A DNA stretch of 64,000 bases from Escherichia coli (GTDB lineage: Bacteria; Pseudomonadota; Gammaproteobacteria; Enterobacterales; Enterobacteriaceae), in assembly GCF_003018255.1 (NCBI RefSeq), contig NZ_CP027440.1, one strand, 5' to 3'. The notes below the pieces were generated by a model. That model was not told the origin of the DNA. It made no database searches and saw nothing but the letters and a program-made list of their open reading frames with translations. Numbering within the stretch: position 1 is the first letter of the stretch; every line of letters starts with the position of its first letter. Shown here in pieces: positions 56,225-64,000 of this stretch. The translations under genes and the position numbers were made by a program.

Positions 56225-56686
<462 letters not shown>

Positions 56687-56707
56687 TTCGTTATTCAACG
56701 AGACGTA

Positions 56708-56740
56708 AAAACGCCGACCAGTGGTCGGCGTTTTGCTTTT
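56708..56740 (+). terminator. Rho-independent terminator of the rpsF-priB-rpsR-rplI operon
   Basis: Hairpin cgccgacca-gt-ggtcggcg (56712..56730) followed by ttttgctttt. Confidence 0.85.
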
Positions 56741-57048
56741 AAGTGATAAAAACCGCAGAAACAGACGTTCCCTCCATAAATCTCTTGCTATTCCTTTTAT
56801 AAAAAGTTCGCAGTACCCATACCTGGCCCCCAGCCTCGCCGCTGGTAGTTCGTGTCATGTTTTTTACGCGTAAAACACGACAAAAGCATCAATACAGCGA
56901 TCGTCTCACTTGTATGATAATAAAAACAATATGTTATATATGAATGTGCTGTTATTTTATTGTTTTTATATATAAAAAGATAAAATACCATCACTTTCGT
57001 AATCTTGAACGCTTTGCAGGTGCGTTCAATCCAATAAATGCTAATATT

Positions 57049-57065
57049 ATGGCTATCATAGCCAT
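57049..57065. promoter_or_regulatory. Candidate operator: 17-bp perfect palindrome upstream of the HTH gene
   Basis: atggctat-c-atagccat with 8-bp perfect arms, 23 bp before the HTH start codon; function inferred. Confidence 0.4.
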
Positions 57066-57087
57066 AAAAAGATAAAATATTATCACT

Positions 57088-57579
57088 ATGGGTAAAAAAA
57101 CAGCACCGTTACTCCCTTATACGAATCAGATGCTTAGTGAATTTGGTGAGCGGCTGAAACTTGCTCGTTTACGACGCAGGCTTACCGCAAAGCAAGTTGC
57201 TGAACGTGCTGGGATGTCGCCAATAACATTGCGCTCTCTGGAGTCAGGAAGTGCAGGGGTCACGATAGGGGCATATTTGTCTGTGATGCAGGTTTTGGGC
57301 CTGGAAACGGATTTAAATAAGCTTGCAGCTGAAGACGACTTAGGGCGTCAGCTCCAGGATTCCCGTTTGATTAAAAAAAGAGGGCTTTCTCGTGCATCAA
57401 GTAAGAATGAAGAAGGTTCTCAGACAGCCTCATTGCAGATGAGGCACGAGAAAGAAGGTCATCTCACCACGGATTTAACAGCACTGGCAGAAGGCTCGAC
57501 GCCATCTATTACAGGAGAAACATCAACCTCTCTTGCAGCACTATTAAAACCGATAAAAAAACCGTTAAAAGGAAATTAA
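57088..57579 (+). CDS. XRE-family helix-turn-helix protein with extended Ser/Thr-rich C-terminal tail; putative HipB-like antitoxin/repressor
   Basis: ORF track 163 aa; N-terminal region ([32 protein letters not shown]) has the XRE/Cro-type HTH pattern; stop lies 2 nt before the kinase start. Confidence 0.7.
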
Positions 57580-57581
57580 TT

Positions 57582-58850
57582 ATGGCATTAATCGGAGTGT
57601 ATGCGGATTGGGAAGGCCTGGATGGTCCGGAGCGGATTGGTTATTTACACAGTCGCCGCACTCGGACGCGTGAGATATTTGAGTTTGAGTACGATAAAAA
57701 GGCGCTTGCAGATCCTTCACTTAATTTCATTCAGTTAGATCCTGAAATAATGTTGTATGAGGGAGCACACTACCCAATTCCTCCAAAGGATAAATTTGGT
57801 GCATTTAGTGATTCCTGCCCGGATCGTTGGGGGCGTATGCTAATGAAGCGTCGTTTTGAGAGGGATATTCGAGACGGGTTATGTGATAAAGACTCCCACC
57901 TTTATGAGTCTGATTATCTACTAGGTGTTCATGATCTTTATCGGGTTGGGGCCCTTCGATACAAACGTGAAGACGCTGGAGAGTTTCTTGATAATCGCAT
58001 TGATGTTGCAGCCCCACCATTTACCGAAATAGCGAGTCTGGAAAGGGCTAGCCGGGCAATTGAAGAAGATCCTGATAATAAAGAGCTAATGGGGCAAAAA
58101 TGGTTAAGAATGCTAATCGCTCCGGGGGGATCATTAGGGGGGGCACGTCCGAAAGCCAGTGTTGTTGATGAAGCTGGGCATCTCTACATCGCTAAATTTC
58201 CCAGTGTAAAAGATGAGTATGATGTTGGTGGATGGGAAATGGCCGTTAATGCACTTGCTGTTGGCTGTGGACTGAATGTTGCACCTGCTCAGGCGCATAA
58301 ATTTGCCAGCAATTACCATTGTTTTATGGTTCGTCGTTTTGACCGCACTAATGCGGGAAGGCGTCTGCATTTTGCTTCGGCTATGACACTAACCAGGCAT
58401 CAGGATGGTGAAGATGCCTCTACAGGTGTGAGTTATCTGGAATTAGCAGATGTTCTTATCAGGCATGGCGCGCAGACTAATACTGATCTTAAGGAACTCT
58501 GGTCCAGGATTGTTTTTAATATTCTTGTTTCTAATACCGATGATCATTTACGCAATCATGGATTTATCTTGATACCAGGAAAAGGTTGGCGGCTTTCTGA
58601 GGCATATGATTTGAATCCTGTGGTCAGGTCTGATGGTTTAAAACTCAATATTACGGAAAATGACAATGCACTTGATTTGGAATTAGCTAGAGAAGTTGCA
58701 GAGTATTTTCGACTTAGTTTGACGGAAGCTGATGACATTATTGCTAATTTTAGAGGGATTGTCAGTCAGTGGCGAATCATTGCCGAGCGTCTGAGATTAC
58801 CTGGTCGTGAGCAAGAGTTAATGGCAGAGGCATTCAGAGCGTCAATTTAG
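57582..58850 (+). CDS. HipA-family serine/threonine kinase (putative toxin)
   Basis: ORF track 422 aa; HipA-like motifs GGARPK (res ~186-191), NTDDHLRNHG (res ~318-327), AYD (res ~341-343) and N-terminal SDSCPDRWGR resembling the HipA N-subdomain; RBS aaaagga. Confidence 0.75.
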   Translation: MALIGVYADWEGLDGPERIGYLHSRRTRTREIFEFEYDKKALADPSLNFIQLDPEIMLYEGAHYPIPPKDKFGAFSDSCPDRWGRMLMKRRFERDIRDGLCDKDSHLYESDYLLGVHDLYRVGALRYKREDAGEFLDNRIDVAAPPFTEIASLERASRAIEEDPDNKELMGQKWLRMLIAPGGSLGGARPKASVVDEAGHLYIAKFPSVKDEYDVGGWEMAVNALAVGCGLNVAPAQAHKFASNYHCFMVRRFDRTNAGRRLHFASAMTLTRHQDGEDASTGVSYLELADVLIRHGAQTNTDLKELWSRIVFNILVSNTDDHLRNHGFILIPGKGWRLSEAYDLNPVVRSDGLKLNITENDNALDLELAREVAEYFRLSLTEADDIIANFRGIVSQWRIIAERLRLPGREQELMAEAFRASI

Positions 58851-58948
58851 AATAGTTATTTCGATATATTCGCTAAATCATAAATTTGCGAAGCAATGCC
58901 AGTAGATACTGAACGTTTTGGAAGAGACGTTTAATTTATGAGAAAAAT

Positions 58949-58981
58949 AGAAACGCTACAAAGCTAAATTATAGCGTTTCT
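58949..58981. terminator. Perfect 10-bp stem hairpin between convergent kinase gene and MFS gene
   Basis: agaaacgcta / tagcgtttct with 13-nt loop; T-rich run follows on the minus strand, so probably the MFS operon terminator. Confidence 0.55.
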
Positions 58982-58992
58982 ATGTAAAATAA

Positions 58993-60270
58993 TTAGCTTG
59001 TCGCTAACTGTACTTGTGGTTCTTCGTCTTTAACTTTGATAAGCATCCACAGCGCAATGGCGCCAATAATGTCAAAGAAAGCCAGGGCAATAAAGAACGG
59101 CGCGAAGCCAATAATGTGAACGAATGCCCCGATAAACAGGTTGAAAATCAACTGACCGCTCCATGCACAGGCTCCTGCCATACCCACAGCGGTAGCTACT
59201 TCGTCTTTTTTGAATAGGTCACCGCCCAGAGTTGCTGCAACAGTAGAAAGACATTGATGCGAGAATGCGCCAATGCTAATCAGTAATACGGCGATGTAGG
59301 GATTTTCGACAATACTCACCAGACCAATCGTCATCATAATGACGGCTGCAATAGTGAAGGTAATTCTTCGTGAGTTAATTAAACTCACGCCGCGATCGTG
59401 GAAGAACTTCGCGACAAAACCACTGGCTAAACAGCCGAGATCGCCCAGCAGGAAAGGTAGCCAGACGAACATGGCAATTTCTTTCAGGCTAAAATGCAGC
59501 GTTTCGACGAAGAAAATCGGTACCCAGAAGTTAATGGTTCCCCATGCCGGGTCAGCGAGAAAACGCGCGATGCCAATCCCCCAGAAATTACGTTGGCTGA
59601 GGATATGCTTGATTGACGTTTTTTCTTTCTTATCTGTTTTAAGATGCTGTTCTTGCCCAGACTCAATATAGTGGCGCTCTTCATCAGAAAGGCGTTTAGC
59701 ATCTTTTGGATCTTTATAACAAAAGAACCAAAATAAAGCCGCGAGTAAAGCAAGGCTACCTGAGACAATAAACGCAAATTGCCAGCTATGAAACATAATG
59801 CACCAGGCAATCAACGGTGGAGCAAGCATCGCGCCGAGTGAGGTGCCCATATTGAAAACACCTGTCGCCACGCCACGCTCTTTTGCCGGGAACCATGTTG
59901 ATGCGGTTTTTACACCCGCAGGAATTGCCGATGCTTCGCTGAAACCCATCAGGGCGCGCATAAATGCCAGACCTGACCATGTTCCTGTCAAGGCATGCCC
60001 CATTGTCGCCAGGCCCCAGATTGCGGCACATATCGCAAAACTTAACTTCAGACCCACGGTATCAATAAAGAAGCCCATTATCGGTTGCCCCAATGTATAG
60101 GCCAACTGGAATGCACTGACAATCCATGAATATTGTTCTTTGGTTATTCCGGTTGTCTCCATAATCGTTGGAGCCGCAATACCTAACGCCGTTCTGTCCA
60201 GATAATTGATTACAGTGATAAAGCATACGAGGGCAATCATATGCCATCGATAATTCTTTATTTTATTCAT
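58993..60270 (-). CDS. MFS transporter, probably anion:cation symporter (ACS) type
   Basis: ORF track 425 aa; about 12 predicted hydrophobic helices; N-terminal NYLDRT motif resembling ExuT/DgoT-type carriers. Confidence 0.75.
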   Translation of the reverse strand: MNKIKNYRWHMIALVCFITVINYLDRTALGIAAPTIMETTGITKEQYSWIVSAFQLAYTLGQPIMGFFIDTVGLKLSFAICAAIWGLATMGHALTGTWSGLAFMRALMGFSEASAIPAGVKTASTWFPAKERGVATGVFNMGTSLGAMLAPPLIAWCIMFHSWQFAFIVSGSLALLAALFWFFCYKDPKDAKRLSDEERHYIESGQEQHLKTDKKEKTSIKHILSQRNFWGIGIARFLADPAWGTINFWVPIFFVETLHFSLKEIAMFVWLPFLLGDLGCLASGFVAKFFHDRGVSLINSRRITFTIAAVIMMTIGLVSIVENPYIAVLLISIGAFSHQCLSTVAATLGGDLFKKDEVATAVGMAGACAWSGQLIFNLFIGAFVHIIGFAPFFIALAFFDIIGAIALWMLIKVKDEEPQVQLATS

Positions 60271-60362
60271 TTTTAAACCTTTTAATTATATTAATAAACC
60301 CTGGTTGTTGGTATTTCCATGTAATAGGCAATAAAAATCAGGTACAGAGGAAATATTGAAAA

Positions 60363-62435
60363 TTATTGTGTGTAAATGTCTCCCTTTAAAAAATCTGGCC
60401 AGTTTTTTTCAAAGTAAATACCGTTAATACACGGTTGCATACGTAAAGACTTTACTTCGGTAATAAAAGAACCTTGCGAATATTGAATTGTTAATTTGTG
60501 ATTTTTGTCTTCAGCGAGTTCAGAGCGAAAACGCCATTCTTCTTTTGCGCCGCGACGAGTTTGTGGTAGGCATTTGCCTTGTGGATCAATAACCATACGC
60601 GCCCCACGGCTACCACCACCAGCATCAATATAATGCGTTAATTGTGTTAATACCGCGGCAGAAGTCAGCGCCATATGCCGCCACATAAACAGCTCGGCAA
60701 CTTCACCCACATGTTTGATTGCCAATCCATGCCGTTGGACAAATTCGTTCAATAGCAGGGCATCACGAGTGGCACGTCGGACTTTATCGGCATGGCAAAT
60801 AAATCCCGCATAGTCAGACATTCGTGCCTGAATTTTTTCTCTCACAACCGACAACGGCATCCCGGTCCCGTTATCGTGCGCCTGAGTAATGATCTCTCTT
60901 ATAGAAGCCAGTGCCGGAGCTACCAGCTGTGCTATATCTCCATCAATATTACGTTTTTGCGTGCAACCAATAAAACGTGCCAGACGAACAGCAAAAACCT
61001 GCCCGGCATTCAATGCCGCACCACCAGGGCGAGTGACGCCGTGTGTGCCAGCAACTTCCCCCACGGCGAAACAGCCGGGCAGGGAGGTTTGTCCCCAGAT
61101 ATCCACTTCAATGCCGCCATTCATATGCTGATTATTCATGGCAAACTGCAAAGGCTGTGTGGTGAGATCGTAACCGTGCATCTTATACAGCGAGATAGAC
61201 AGCGGATTCATTCGTTGCAGCCGTTCGATGGGCGATGGTGCCAGAGCGTCGTTATTTTCCAGATACGCGCGAACGTCGTCGTCCAGTCGATCTAATGAGA
61301 AGGGCAGGTCACCCGGCACCGCTTCAGGATTGCGATTGAAATCCATAAATACCTGACGCCCTGATTGCTGCTCTTGCGCTACAGCCATATCTAACAAGCT
61401 GGAGCCAAACTCCATTACCCGAGTGGCGTGGAACGGCCACTGATAGCCTTTACGAAAAATGTTTGAAGCCAGCTCCTGGGTGGTGCGATAGTAATCCGCG
61501 AGGAAGTTATACTCGTTGCCCCCGGCATCCACGGAATAGATATGTGGGATCACCTGCACATAGGTGCCGGACAAATTCCACGGAAACGTGCTGCGCGGTG
61601 TGCCTATACCAAACTGGCTTTCAGTCAAATTGGTTAGCGTCAGACCTTCTTCCAGCGCCAGCCCCAGCGAGCCGAAACATTTGTGTGGGTACACACTGTC
61701 GCGATAAAGCTCGCCAGGCCCTCCTGTTGCCAGTACCACATTGGGCGCAATCACAATTGCCAGCCCCCATGGGTTATGGACGCGATGACCGGTCGCGAGG
61801 ATAGCCCCCGCCACGCGGTCTTCGCCGTTTTCGTCACGCTGATGCAGCAGTTTAATCACTGTTGCACTGGTCAACATTGGGATAGCAAGACGCTGTACTT
61901 CTTCCAGCAGCACTTTCACCATTAACCTTGAGGTACGTGGCCCACACGAGGTTGCACGCCCGGCTTCGTCATGGTCGGTTTGATAACGAAGAATCGCACC
62001 ATAGCGATCTTCCGGTAATTCCAGACCAAGATATTGCAACCCGCCAAGAGTGTGCAGAGAACCTACCGCTTCGACATAAGCAGTGTCGTGATCCATCGCC
62101 CCACCACTCGCCAGTGCCTCTGCCAGTTTGGTGAAGTTGTCGCCGTTGCCCGCGGTAGCGGCGGTAAACAGCGTCTGTTTATCGGAACCGGAGCAGGCCG
62201 ATGTTCCCATGTATAACCCGGCGGTGGCGATTAACACATTTTGCTGGCGGCGTTTAAGTTCCACAGCTGCACGCAGCCCGGCTGCACCACTGCCGACTAC
62301 CAGGGCATCTGTTTGCCAAAGTGGGTAATCAACACCGTCTACCGTGACAACCCATGCGGGTTCTGCCTGTGCAAAACCCTTTGGGAAAGTAACGTGCGTC
62401 AGCGCATCAAGGATGGTGTCATCAAGCTGACTCAT
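60363..62435 (-). CDS. FAD-dependent oxidoreductase, fumarate reductase/succinate dehydrogenase flavoprotein-like
   Basis: ORF track 690 aa; dinucleotide-binding VVGSGAAGLRAA and FrdA-like segment CFAVGEVAGTHGVTRPGGAALNAGQVF; ATG overlaps the upstream stop (ATGA). Confidence 0.7.
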   Translation of the reverse strand: MSQLDDTILDALTHVTFPKGFAQAEPAWVVTVDGVDYPLWQTDALVVGSGAAGLRAAVELKRRQQNVLIATAGLYMGTSACSGSDKQTLFTAATAGNGDNFTKLAEALASGGAMDHDTAYVEAVGSLHTLGGLQYLGLELPEDRYGAILRYQTDHDEAGRATSCGPRTSRLMVKVLLEEVQRLAIPMLTSATVIKLLHQRDENGEDRVAGAILATGHRVHNPWGLAIVIAPNVVLATGGPGELYRDSVYPHKCFGSLGLALEEGLTLTNLTESQFGIGTPRSTFPWNLSGTYVQVIPHIYSVDAGGNEYNFLADYYRTTQELASNIFRKGYQWPFHATRVMEFGSSLLDMAVAQEQQSGRQVFMDFNRNPEAVPGDLPFSLDRLDDDVRAYLENNDALAPSPIERLQRMNPLSISLYKMHGYDLTTQPLQFAMNNQHMNGGIEVDIWGQTSLPGCFAVGEVAGTHGVTRPGGAALNAGQVFAVRLARFIGCTQKRNIDGDIAQLVAPALASIREIITQAHDNGTGMPLSVVREKIQARMSDYAGFICHADKVRRATRDALLLNEFVQRHGLAIKHVGEVAELFMWRHMALTSAAVLTQLTHYIDAGGGSRGARMVIDPQGKCLPQTRRGAKEEWRFRSELAEDKNHKLTIQYSQGSFITEVKSLRMQPCINGIYFEKNWPDFLKGDIYTQ

Positions 62436-63973
62436 GCATCCTCCATCGGCGTAAACAGGCTACTTTCCATCAGGCGTGGGTGCTTGATAATTGGACGGAA
62501 AGCCATATACGGCAGAATGTCGCGCTCAATCTCCACACCCGGCGCGATTTCAATTAATTCAACGCCTTCTGCCGTTAACTGGAATACTGCGCGTTCAGTG
62601 ATATACAGCACTTCCTGACCACTTTGCTGTGCGTAGGCGGCGCTAAAAGTGATTTTTTCCACTTGGGTAACCAGTTTAGGGATTTGACCTGACTGGGCGA
62701 TATGCAGGCCATCAGGCGTTACATCAATCTTGCTGCCTTTGGCGTCAAACGTACCGCAGAACACCACTTTACGGGCGTTTTGCGCAATTTCGAGGAAGCC
62801 GCCGGGGCCAATGAGATTGCCATTGAGATGGGATACGTTGACGTTACCGTACCGATCCATCTCTCCCATGCCGAGGAAGGTGATATCGATACCGCCGCCA
62901 CTGTAGAATTCGAATTGATCGAGTGATGGAATAATGGCGTCGGCGTTACGGGCGCAGCCGAACAGAGCATCATCCAGCATCATGCCGTTATGTACGCCTT
63001 GCTCGACGCTCATCCATAAACTTTGATAAGGCACGCCTTCGCGCAGCGCAACCCCAGGAATACCGCCCGGAATACCAAAGCCAAAGTTGGTTGAAGCGCC
63101 TGCCACCAGTTCCCGTGCTGCCCGACGGGCAATCAGGCGACGCACCGGATGACTAACCAGTTCAATAGCGTCGTTAGAACTTAGACGGCGATGTTGACCG
63201 CTGATCGTCAGGTCGTAACCGCCAAGATAGGTTTGCGGTTGTTCGCGGTGTTCAACGATACCATCGACCAGAATCCCCGGTAGCTTGACCTTGCGAGGTT
63301 CAATGGCGCCAGCTTCCAGTACATCGCGCACCTGTACAAACACTTTGCCGCCACTGTTGTGTGCTGCCAGCGCCATCGAATAGCTATCCATATCAATCGC
63401 TTCTTCTTCGAGGCTAACGTTGCCACGCGGATCGGCATAGGTGCCGCGCAAAATCGCGTAGTCCACTTTGAAAGGGCGATAGCGGAGTTTGGTTTCACCG
63501 TCGATTTCAATCAGTTCTACCAGGTCGTCGGTCGTGCATTCATTCGACTTACCGCCACCATTGCGTGGATCAACAAACGATCCCAGCCCAACGTGGGTAA
63601 AAAGCCCCGGACGTCCGGCACCGATCTCCCGCAGCAGTGCCTGAATTACGCCACCAGGGAAACAGTAGGCTTCAATAGCATTGCTTTTCACCAGTTCCTG
63701 CATCTTGGGCGACCAGGTAAAATGTCCGGCAATAATGCGTTTGAGCATTTCGGCGTGAGCAAAACGGTTAGTGCCTTTGCTGTCGCGATCGCCAATACCC
63801 AGCGAGTGGATTAATGTCAGATCGCGCGGGTGTCCGGTTTGCAGGAAACGCGCTTCAATGGCGGCCATAATATGGTCAGCTTCCACCATACCGCCGCCGT
63901 TACCGCTAATGGCAATGGTTGCGCCGTCCTGAATTTGCGCCGCCAGTGTCTCGGCGGTTGATAACTTACGCAT
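62432..63973 (-). CDS. Fused two-domain acyl-CoA:acetate/3-ketoacid CoA-transferase (YdiF-like)
   Basis: ORF track 513 aa; strong resemblance to E. coli YdiF along its whole length by recall; RBS aggaaa; promoter lies beyond the window end. Confidence 0.75.
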   Translation of the reverse strand: MRKLSTAETLAAQIQDGATIAISGNGGGMVEADHIMAAIEARFLQTGHPRDLTLIHSLGIGDRDSKGTNRFAHAEMLKRIIAGHFTWSPKMQELVKSNAIEAYCFPGGVIQALLREIGAGRPGLFTHVGLGSFVDPRNGGGKSNECTTDDLVELIEIDGETKLRYRPFKVDYAILRGTYADPRGNVSLEEEAIDMDSYSMALAAHNSGGKVFVQVRDVLEAGAIEPRKVKLPGILVDGIVEHREQPQTYLGGYDLTISGQHRRLSSNDAIELVSHPVRRLIARRAARELVAGASTNFGFGIPGGIPGVALREGVPYQSLWMSVEQGVHNGMMLDDALFGCARNADAIIPSLDQFEFYSGGGIDITFLGMGEMDRYGNVNVSHLNGNLIGPGGFLEIAQNARKVVFCGTFDAKGSKIDVTPDGLHIAQSGQIPKLVTQVEKITFSAAYAQQSGQEVLYITERAVFQLTAEGVELIEIAPGVEIERDILPYMAFRPIIKHPRLMESSLFTPMEDA

Positions 63974-64000
63974 ACAATTTCCTTATTGATTGTGGAAGCT

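Follow-up and report, generated by a model that had tools for sequence, protein, structure and literature searches.

A HipBA-type gene pair downstream of rplI in Escherichia coli probably forms a self-contained toxin-antitoxin operon of a large subfamily distinct from K-12 hipBA

The gene pair described here probably constitutes (we put the probability at about 70%) a self-contained HipBA operon of the type II toxin-antitoxin kind, from a large subfamily to which K-12 hipBA does not belong; the locus is known in the literature as hipA-2/xre-3. It lies in a stretch of 64,000 nucleotides of the E. coli contig NZ_CP027440.1, the whole of which was analysed and is called the window below. The locus is a correct but ordinary finding, already annotated and published: in RefSeq, the kinase carries the product name "type II toxin-antitoxin system HipA family toxin", and with its textbook HipBA architecture the pair adds little as a sequence finding. 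A preliminary description, made from the nucleotide sequence, had proposed a HipBA-like, bicistronic and probably active kinase module on a low-GC insertion missing from K-12, and this proved right on all points that were tested. Its term "atypical" was overstated, because the gene order is the canonical hipB-hipA one and the kinase family is very large, with 754 cluster representatives at E<1e-30.

57088 to 57579, plus strand: hipB-like gene (published name xre-3), 163 aa, supported by Pfam, alignments and an AF2 model
57582 to 58850, plus strand: hipA-family Ser/Thr kinase gene (published name hipA-2), 422 aa, intact
57569 to 57573, plus strand: Shine-Dalgarno sequence AAGGA of the kinase gene, within the end of the HTH gene and 8 nt before the ATG

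The preliminary description had read a 163-aa HTH frame, 2 nt and then a 422-aa kinase frame with its own ribosome-binding site, and all of these were recovered at the positions listed above. The TAA stop codon of the HTH gene (57577-57579) is separated from the ATG of the kinase gene (57582-57584) by the two nucleotides TT, a spacing compatible with translational coupling of the kinase gene. A Shine-Dalgarno site was absent from the HTH gene. The HTH gene has a GC content of 45.9% (GC3 37%) and the kinase gene one of 44.6% (GC3 34%), compared to 50-53% for the rpsF-rplI genes and 51.6% for the whole 64-kb window, so that both genes are indeed AT-richer than the flanking ribosomal-protein operon, as had been noticed.

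Pfam searches with the HTH protein gave matches to HTH_31 (6.6e-11) and HTH_3 (2e-6) over residues 18-75. Alignments and the AF2 model delineated a conserved N-terminal peptide, KKTAPLLP, and an Xre HTH core with helices at residues 10-94; the C-terminal part consists of a disordered, variable tail (residues 95-140) and then a short conserved helix and motif, SLAALLKP (residues 146-155). The fold was compared with HipB structures and matched 9U9G with a TMt of 0.91, HipB(Lp) and K-12 HipB being also among the matches.

The kinase exhibited a match to HipA_C (PF07804) with an E value of 3.4e-47 over residues 184-397, covering the full model length. Among the profiles that the preliminary description had put forward for a search, HipA_C and HTH_3 were thus found, and Couple_hipA gave only a marginal match (E 0.25).

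58131 to 58154, plus strand: codons S184-K191 of the Gly-rich (P-)loop, with the G7 homopolymer 58137-58143 inside
58539 to 58610, plus strand: codons of the catalytic loop D320-N325 (DDHLRN) and of the Mg-binding D343 (AYD), equivalents of HipA D309, N314 and D332

The motifs GGARPK, NTDDHLRNHG and AYD were located at residues 186-191, 318-327 and 341-343 of the kinase. The hhalign profile alignment with K-12 HipA, which has a probability of 97% and begins at residue 14, paired S184 with S150, K191 with K157, K205 with K181, D320 with D309, N325 with N314 and D343 with D332 (K-12 HipA second), K205 being the equivalent of the ATP-anchoring lysine K181. The P-loop-like GGARPK, the catalytic loop and the AYD motif had already been said to align to HipA, in agreement with this mapping, and the two residues singled out at that stage, K191 and D320, are real positions because they fall on HipA K157 and D309. 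By this alignment, the four core motifs of Hip kinases, namely the Gly-rich loop, the ATP-binding lysine, the catalytic Asp/Asn loop and the Mg-binding aspartate, are all present. Over 61 diverse homologues, down to 33% identity, the mapped catalytic residues and S184 are invariant or at least 90% conserved; S184, aligned to the HipA autophosphorylation site S150 and itself at least 90% conserved, is the predicted autophosphorylation site. The AF2 model of the kinase has a pLDDT of 94.2. Its top Foldseek matches were E. coli HipA structures 3DNV and 3TPT (TM 0.68-0.70, full length, about 460 alignment columns), and full-length E. coli and Shewanella HipA together gave the best structural matches (TM 0.64-0.70). 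As modelled, the kinase has a full-length HipA fold that includes the N-terminal (HipS-like) subdomain, despite the marginal Couple_hipA match.

57043 to 57081, plus strand: proximal operator-like box pair AATATT-N27-AATATT, with boxes at -45 and -12 from the ATG
56951 to 56989, plus strand: distal operator-like box pair, degenerate in E. coli, GTTATT-N27-AATACC, partly in a direct repeat

The proximal box pair occurs once in the 64-kb window, with 0.01 occurrences expected by chance, and encloses a perfect palindrome, TTATGGCTAT-C-ATAGCCATAA, at 57047-57067. It is kept at an equal distance from the ATG in loci of Enterobacterales, Azotobacter, Burkholderiales and Xanthomonadales, with the consensus TGCTAATATTnTGGC...GrAATATTAGC across loci, and represents a putative binding site of the HTH protein. 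The right proximal box overlaps the expected place of a -10 element or of a Shine-Dalgarno site. A 24-nt direct repeat links the distal region (56972-56995) to the proximal one (57064-57087), and 17 other loci have intact distal AATATT pairs in the corresponding position (about -150/-117), the spacing being always 33 bp. The conserved AATATT pairs, with their 33-bp spacing, overlie the promoter and start-codon region. A simple consensus scan of the plus strand upstream of the HTH gene gave no sigma-70 promoter, and the Rfam scan of 56500-59100 returned sub-threshold chance matches only. Within the kinase gene, a terminator-like site (57623-57639) did not exceed chance expectation and was set aside.

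By analogy with the HipBA systems of K-12, Shewanella and Caulobacter, the HTH protein would bind the AATATT boxes as a dimer, probably together with the kinase, and thereby repress the operon, and it would also keep the kinase inactive. On loss of the labile, disordered-tailed antitoxin, the free kinase would phosphorylate an essential protein, for which an aminoacyl-tRNA synthetase or another translation factor would be the likeliest candidate. Growth would then stop, and the kinase might subsequently inactivate itself by autophosphorylation at S184. A more speculative version, which we regard as quite unlikely, is that the subfamily, which is very widespread (from E. coli B2 strains to Bacteroides), uses a substrate other than a tRNA synthetase together with a new mode of control, in which the conserved N-terminal peptide of HipB and, in Proteobacteria, the long disordered tail with its terminal "ALLKP" docking motif would serve as a sensor or a pseudosubstrate, with phage defence as a possible role; the mRNA might even be leaderless, with its start codon under the operator.

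The two genes stay together across phyla. An HTH homologue stands directly upstream of the kinase in 83 of the 84 related loci, which span gamma- and betaproteobacteria (including Enterobacterales), Acidobacteria and Bacteroidota (including Bacteroides), and the gap between the two genes ranges from -4 to +21 nt, with a 4-nt overlap in 33 loci. A conserved third gene beside the pair was not found in 85 loci. The sole neighbour cluster present in more than 8 loci, identified as LysR-type regulators from the Pfam matches of one member, was considered as a third component and rejected; its recurrence was taken as chance because LysR regulators are a very large paralogous family. Pfam annotation of the neighbourhoods in Pseudomonas, Burkholderia, Stenotrophomonas and Yersinia showed metabolic and housekeeping genes around the pair, and no adjacent defence or mobility genes were seen.

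These surroundings bear on another reading, a non-toxic regulatory duo in which the kinase would be a signalling enzyme or co-repressor that tunes the HTH regulator or metabolic targets, in the manner of HipH/YjjJ. Metabolic operons often adjoin the pair, which resides on the chromosome, is conserved very widely and evolves under purifying selection, and the HTH core is about 50% identical between Bacteroidota and E. coli, a conservation unusual for an antitoxin. However, the neighbour genes differ in every genus, so that no regulon is apparent, and the tight coupling and self-operator layout are typical of toxin-antitoxin pairs. The repeated decay of the kinase gene with an intact HTH gene, encountered in Nissle 1917, Ec55, CFT073 and the Pseudomonas loci L097 and L098, is moreover a toxin-like pattern, and we consider the regulatory duo very unlikely.

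56708 to 56734, plus strand: rplI intrinsic terminator, from a terminator scan
56740 to 58989, no strand assigned: cassette of roughly 2.2 kb that some E. coli strains carry and others lack
58947 to 58983, minus strand: terminator hairpin belonging to the convergent MFS transporter gene, on the right-hand cassette edge

The preliminary description had judged the position to be unlike K-12. Blastn against K-12 and STB20-1 confirmed this, since homology to K-12 and to empty-site strains stops at 56739, 5 nt past the rplI terminator, and K-12 carries yjfZ there. The right edge of the cassette lies between 58948 and 58989 depending on the comparison strain, homology with cassette-free strains resuming at 58948-58990. 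The cassette contains the two genes and their control region only, and neither flanking repeats nor mobility genes or mobility signatures were seen at its ends. The alternative states downstream of rplI are an empty site (locus L100) and yjfZ (locus L101 and K-12). Among 5426 complete E. coli genomes, 1044 (about a fifth) carry the cassette, including ST131 and Nissle 1917.

Several copies are damaged, and the module could be an inert, decaying remnant in E. coli. A frameshift allele with one additional G at the G7 tract (G8) was found in Nissle 1917 and 18 other complete genomes, Ec55 also has a pseudogene copy, and IS1, IS4 and IS5 insertions interrupt the module in several strains; the CFT073 copy of the kinase gene was likewise reported as a pseudogene (PMC7232551). 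Against this, the copy in the window is full length with every catalytic residue, and the exact in-frame 80-mer over the G7 tract is kept in 868 of the 1044 cassette genomes, so that at least 83% of the carriers are in frame there. The kinase gene of the window differs from that of strain NRG857c by 20 synonymous and 8 non-synonymous codons, and in NRG857c the gene is transcribed and responsive to stress (PMC7232551). A decaying remnant is therefore extremely unlikely. In the HTH gene, all 9 of the 9 non-synonymous changes between the window and NRG857c fall in the tail.

Many toxin-antitoxin systems defend against phage, and the main role of the pair could be abortive infection, with infection lifting the control by HipB and the kinase then shutting down the host or phosphorylating a phage protein. 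The AT-rich, strain-variable cassette occupies a hot spot whose cargo differs by strain, as such a role would suggest, and another HipA-family kinase system, DS-6/HipAD, has been validated as defensive in E. coli, although its partner is a DUF3037/DUF1829 protein and not an HTH protein (PMC13092281). In PADLOC-DB v2, the HTH protein gave generic HTH matches only (N-terminal domains of RmrA and capH) and the kinase a single marginal match (PDC-M03A, E 0.004, 14.7 bits). This result, together with the metabolic and housekeeping surroundings devoid of defence or mobile-element genes in the four genera above and the lack of a conserved neighbour over 85 loci, argues against abortive infection, which we hold to be rather unlikely; the alternative had been raised in the preliminary description and found no support in the PADLOC check or the gene neighbourhoods. 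Toxin-antitoxin mechanics would accommodate such a role, which is nonetheless a separate biological function.

The locus was published as the putative toxin-antitoxin system hipA-2/xre-3 (TA28) of adherent-invasive E. coli (AIEC) NRG857c, in a study that used bioinformatics and qRT-PCR only (Bustamante and Vidal 2020, PMC7232551). The NRG857c pair occupies this very locus, with rplI on one side and the MFS/"fatty-acid" gene cluster on the other. The NRG857c kinase is identical to that of the window at 414 of 422 residues (98%), the 8 differences including A188T in its Gly-rich loop, and xre-3 is identical to the HTH protein over residues 1-102. The antitoxin was given there as a 97-aa frame (PMC7232551), whereas RefSeq and the conservation across phyla favour the 163-aa one. 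In NRG857c, bile salts reportedly raised the hipA-2 mRNA 8-32-fold, and high expression was also reported within macrophages (PMC7232551). The preliminary description had considered that the pair might turn out to be an already characterised, named system with a known target: it is named and catalogued, and data on target or toxicity were not found. Our literature search, whose coverage was incomplete, found no toxicity, neutralisation, DNA-binding or substrate experiment for any subfamily member and, as to a characterised homologue, only the 2020 AIEC catalogue paper (PMC7232551). The hipBA clades II and IV-VIII are described as lacking an experimentally analysed module (Gerdes et al. 2021), and comparison of the kinase with the clade I-type sequences of Table S1 of that work gave no match by motif or label. 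The cassette is found in B2 lineages of clinical importance (ST131, AIEC NRG857c) as well as in the probiotic Nissle 1917; in view of this carriage and of the reported induction by bile salts and expression in macrophages, a defined target could be relevant to antibiotic tolerance of these strains or to their persistence in the gut.

In K-12 HipBA, HipA phosphorylates GltX and HipB is both antitoxin and repressor. The pair of the window shares with it the order hipB then hipA, the tight coupling, the full-length HipA fold (TM 0.70), the catalytic residues, the P-loop serine, an Xre-HTH partner with a disordered C-terminus and several upstream operator boxes. The sequences are nevertheless distant: the kinase is 26% identical to K-12 HipA over 147 aa by BLASTP and 18% by structural alignment, and the HTH protein (163 aa against 88 aa) shows no BLAST similarity to K-12 HipB; compared with the latter, it has an additional conserved peptide at its N-terminus and a tail of some 65 residues. 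The NCBIfam HipB equivalog (PRK09726) scored 17.1 bits on the HTH protein against a cut-off of 79, and the kinase matched none of the NCBIfam HipA equivalogs, the HipA, HipB and YjjJ models being far below their cut-offs. Judged by these models, the pair falls outside the GltX-targeting HipA/HipB orthologue group of K-12. The K-12 hipBA operator, TATCC-N8-GGATA, is also unlike the AATATT-N27-AATATT boxes.

For the HTH partner, a structure is available as PDB 9U9G, named "antitoxin HipB" of P. fluorescens 2P24 by its depositors and released on 2026-04-01, which belongs to the same subfamily as the HTH protein of the window. Identity between the two proteins is 62% in the HTH core, a region that takes in the N-terminal KKTAPL(L/M)P, and their lengths are comparable (153 aa for 9U9G); in the crystal chains, only about 78-85 residues of 9U9G are ordered. 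The kinase adjoining this type of HipB in matching Pseudomonas genomes is 58% identical to that of the window, in another genus and at another genomic site (downstream of glmS). An accompanying paper was not found in our literature search.

Among solved structures, the C-terminal kinase core is closest by sequence to HipBST of E. coli O127:H6 and Legionella pneumophila (2.7e-22 for HipT(Lp), 1e-16 for HipT of O127 and 1e-11 for HipA). HipT is devoid of the N-terminal subdomain, which is supplied by the separate antitoxin HipS. In contrast, the kinase of the window is full length (422 aa), the pair consists of two genes only with hipS absent, and the structural match to HipT is limited to the C-terminal part (TMq 0.43-0.51). 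HipH/YjjJ of K-12 shows that HipA-like kinases can hit targets other than tRNA synthetases, and it has many substrates. It has the HipA_C kinase core in common with the window kinase, whose sole NCBIfam match is the YjjJ model (NF007297, 44.5 bits against a cut-off of 401) and which is 26% identical to YjjJ over 109 aa by BLASTP; YjjJ is however monocistronic and carries the HTH as an N-terminal fusion, whereas the HTH of the window is a separate protein. Finally, HipAD/DS-6 (DefensePredictor) is likewise a two-gene unit of E. coli with a HipA-family kinase, whose function requires the catalytic residue, but its partner has no similarity to HipB (PMC13092281), whereas the partner in the window is an Xre-HTH protein.

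We interpret the two genes that follow rplI, coding for a helix-turn-helix (HTH) protein and a HipA-family kinase, as a HipBA-type toxin-antitoxin operon, with a probability of about 0.7. The two ORFs come from the ORF listing, and the ribosome-binding sequence was read from the DNA:

57088-57579, + strand: HTH ORF, 163 aa
57569-57573, + strand: Shine-Dalgarno-type AAGGA for the kinase gene
57582-58850, + strand: kinase ORF, 422 aa

The junction reads TAA-TT-ATG; the ORFs, the junction and the AAGGA bear out the preliminary description of a 163-aa HTH gene and a 422-aa kinase gene 2 nt apart, the latter with its own ribosome-binding site. The same description had called both genes AT-richer than the ribosomal-protein operon, and their GC contents are 45.9% (HTH, GC3 37%) and 44.6% (kinase, GC3 34%) versus 50-53% for the rpsF-rplI genes and 51.6% for the whole window. 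On these points, as on the kinase motifs and the K-12 comparison below, its reading of the sequence was correct.

A phmmer search against 1.84 billion cluster representatives returned 6995 relatives (E<1e-3), 754 of them at E<1e-30. Relatives at the closer level of 72-82% identity come from Enterobacter, Yersinia, Serratia, Pseudomonas, Stenotrophomonas, Burkholderia and Alcaligenes. A scan with one genome per species gave 181 loci, and the 80 fetched for study come from gamma- and beta-proteobacteria, Acidobacteria and Bacteroidota, with Bacteroides fragilis among them. In 83 of 84 loci, the gene directly preceding the kinase gene, in the same orientation, codes for an HTH homologue, the lone exception being cut by a contig end; the two genes overlap by 4 nt (n=33), stand 2 nt apart (n=12) and are never separated by more than 21 nt. 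The neighbours vary by genus and are metabolic or housekeeping genes in the Pfam-annotated cases, and an all-against-all comparison of 1150 neighbouring ORFs gave no conserved third gene. The HTH and kinase genes thus form one unit.

The Pfam search proposed in the preliminary description found HipA_C in the kinase (residues 184-397, E 3.4e-47), with a marginal Couple_hipA match (E 0.25), and HTH_31 (6.6e-11) and HTH_3 in the HTH protein. The announced kinase motifs were located as GGARPK (186-191), NTDDHLRNHG (318-327) and AYD (341-343). The AlphaFold2 model of the kinase, built from a 61-sequence alignment, reached a pLDDT of 94.2 and a pTM of 0.93. In Foldseek against the PDB, it matched first the full-length E. 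coli K-12 HipA (3DNV, 3TPT, 3DNT) and Shewanella HipA, with TM scores of 0.64-0.70 over about 460 columns and 17-19% identity, and the match to HipT and CtkA was confined to the C-terminal half. From the full-length match, the kinase contains the N-terminal HipA subdomain, though Pfam barely detects it. Across homologues as distant as 33% identity, the counterparts of the functional HipA residues are either invariant or conserved to at least 90%.

Kinase residues paired with K-12 HipA by profile alignment (probability 97%)
S184: HipA S150, autophosphorylation site
K191: HipA K157, Gly-rich loop lysine
K205: HipA K181, ATP-anchoring lysine
D320: HipA D309, catalytic Asp
N325: HipA N314, catalytic-loop Asn
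D343: HipA D332, Mg-binding Asp

Residues 1-95 of the HTH protein are strongly conserved in all related loci, including the N-terminal peptide KKTAPLLP ahead of the HTH and the helix DDLGRxLQDxRL. The annotated start differs from that of the 2020 paper (PMC7232551), which has a 97-aa ORF; residues 1-14, conserved across phyla, support the ATG at 57088. The AlphaFold2 prediction gave helices at 10-94, disorder at 95-140 and a short helix at 146-150 within the conserved end SLAALLKP. The homologues fall into two size classes, one of 97-109 aa, mostly from Bacteroidota, in which the tail is absent, and one of 141-183 aa from Proteobacteria with a variable tail and the end motif. This proteobacterial tail is a low-complexity, fast-evolving stretch of 45-90 residues, and its conserved (A)LLKP end is predicted to be a short helix. 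BLAST detected no similarity between the HTH protein and K-12 HipB, and the protein scored below the NCBIfam cut-offs for the HipB and Y4mF antitoxins. Its core is 62% identical to PDB 9U9G, released on 2026-04-01 as 'Crystal structure of antitoxin HipB from Pseudomonas fluorescens 2P24', for which no accompanying paper was found in the literature. In Pseudomonas genomes encoding exactly this protein, the next gene codes for a HipA_C kinase 58% identical to that of the window; the HipB gene lies there (L096-L098) just downstream of glmS, adjoining a 418-aa kinase gene. The subfamily is evidently already treated as HipBA by structural biologists.

Upstream of the HTH ATG, loci of four orders share the arrangement TGCTAATATTnTGGC-(about 17 nt)-GrAATATTAGC, with AATATT boxes at -45 and -12. 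Another pair precedes these by about 90-108 bp. In every pair the boxes stand 33 bp from each other, and the distance between pairs varies. This architecture was seen in the window and in comparison loci L003, L006, L008, L010 and L014-L036; the motif is absent from a more distant Pseudomonas clade (62-69% kinase identity). In the window, the pairs are:

56951-56989: distal pair, degenerate (GTTATT at 56951, AATACC at 56984), inside a 24-nt direct repeat
57043-57081: proximal pair (57043-57048 and 57076-57081), enclosing a perfect palindrome at 57047-57067

The 64 kb contain a single AATATT-N27-AATATT, versus 0.01 expected. We infer that the box pairs are HipB operators; K-12 hipBA has a four-operator layout, which the four boxes resemble. 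No Shine-Dalgarno sequence precedes the HTH gene (57060-57090), and a consensus scan gave no promoter at the right-hand box or elsewhere upstream of this gene. Speculatively, the right-hand box (-12 to -7) might also serve as a -10 element, in which case transcription would start at about the AUG and the mRNA would be leaderless.

As the preliminary description had supposed, the position after rplI does not match K-12, whose homology ends at 56739, directly after the rplI terminator. The window is E. coli DNA and is 100% identical to strain JNE23-011 in this region, which holds the cassette formed by the two genes with their control region. Of 5426 complete E. coli genomes, 1044 carry the kinase segment, chromosomal in every case, including ST131 and Nissle 1917. 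The adjacent catabolic cluster of about 8 kb (MFS transporter, 690-aa FAD oxidoreductase, CoA-transferase, enoyl-CoA hydratase, sugar-phosphate isomerase, 3-ketoacyl reductase, TetR) is commoner, being at least partly present in 3158 of the 5426. Strains with the cluster that lack the cassette have just 45 bp (STB20-1) or yjfZ (SMN013SH2) between rplI and the MFS gene, so the cassette, about 2.2 kb long and running from 56740 to about 58950-58989, is an indel independent of the cluster. Neither repeats nor mobility genes were seen at its ends. In K-12, yjfZ is present and the cluster has been deleted, the ytfA pseudogene being a remnant of the TetR gene. The region after rplI (window 56740-64000 and beyond) is a multi-state hot spot holding the hip cassette, yjfZ or an empty site.

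The kinase differs from that of the adherent-invasive strain NRG857c (414/422 residues identical) by 20 synonymous and 8 non-synonymous codons, a sign of purifying selection. The HTH gene differs by 4 synonymous and 9 non-synonymous codons, all 9 in the tail (residues 103-125). A G7 tract (58137-58143) encodes G186-G187-A188 of the Gly-rich loop, whose codons also include a G6 homopolymer (58124-58129). Nissle 1917 has one additional G in the G7 tract, causing a frameshift, and the exact G8 allele occurs in a further 18 complete genomes, APEC O18 and PMV-1 among them; the exact G7 80-mer is kept in 868 of the 1044 carriers, and in NRG857c GCA>ACA (A188T) shortens the tract. The tract may be a slippage hot spot inactivating the toxin, or G8 may be a homopolymer sequencing error. 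In E. coli Ec55 (L099, 1159-1959), IS1 lies between the two genes and truncates the HTH tail, and the kinase is frameshifted as well; other strains have ISVsa5 (IS4-like) and ISEc35 (IS5-like) insertions within the module. Two sister Pseudomonas genomes, L097 and L098, have a kinase that is split (189+246 aa) or shortened (386 aa), with HipB intact and unchanged. Loss of the kinase with retention of the HTH gene is the pattern expected of a toxin. Because of this decay pattern, and because the window allele is intact and under selection, a non-toxic regulatory pair is improbable and an inert remnant more improbable still.

For a HipBA-type operon, operator binding by the HTH protein, neutralisation of the kinase and growth arrest would be the steps, by analogy. 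The kinase target might be an aminoacyl-tRNA synthetase, a guess made because HipA acts on GltX, HipT on TrpS and Caulobacter HipA1/2 likewise on such enzymes. Phage defence as the main role of the cassette had no positive support and seems unlikely.

The locus belongs to a known kind and is already catalogued. RefSeq/PGAP names its products 'helix-turn-helix domain-containing protein' and 'type II toxin-antitoxin system HipA family toxin', and Bustamante and Vidal (Front Microbiol 2020, PMC7232551) listed exactly this locus in NRG857c as TA28, hipA-2/xre-3, for which no report of toxicity, substrate or phenotype was found in the literature. Three features from the present analysis are possibly worth recording: the conserved candidate operator boxes spaced 33 bp apart, the extension of HipB in two parts and the frameshift alleles of the G tract. 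According to Gerdes et al. 2021 (PMC8262856), experimental analysis had been limited to hipBA modules of clade I, HipBST and YjjJ. By sequence comparison, the kinase is distant from the characterised Hip kinases: it shares 26% identity with K-12 HipA over 147 aa and 26% with YjjJ/HipH over 109 aa, and the sole NCBIfam model matching it is YjjJ, at 44.5 bits versus a cut-off of 401. No kinase of this subfamily has a solved structure, and the best profile match among solved structures is HipT(Lp), at 2.7e-22 in the C-terminal part.
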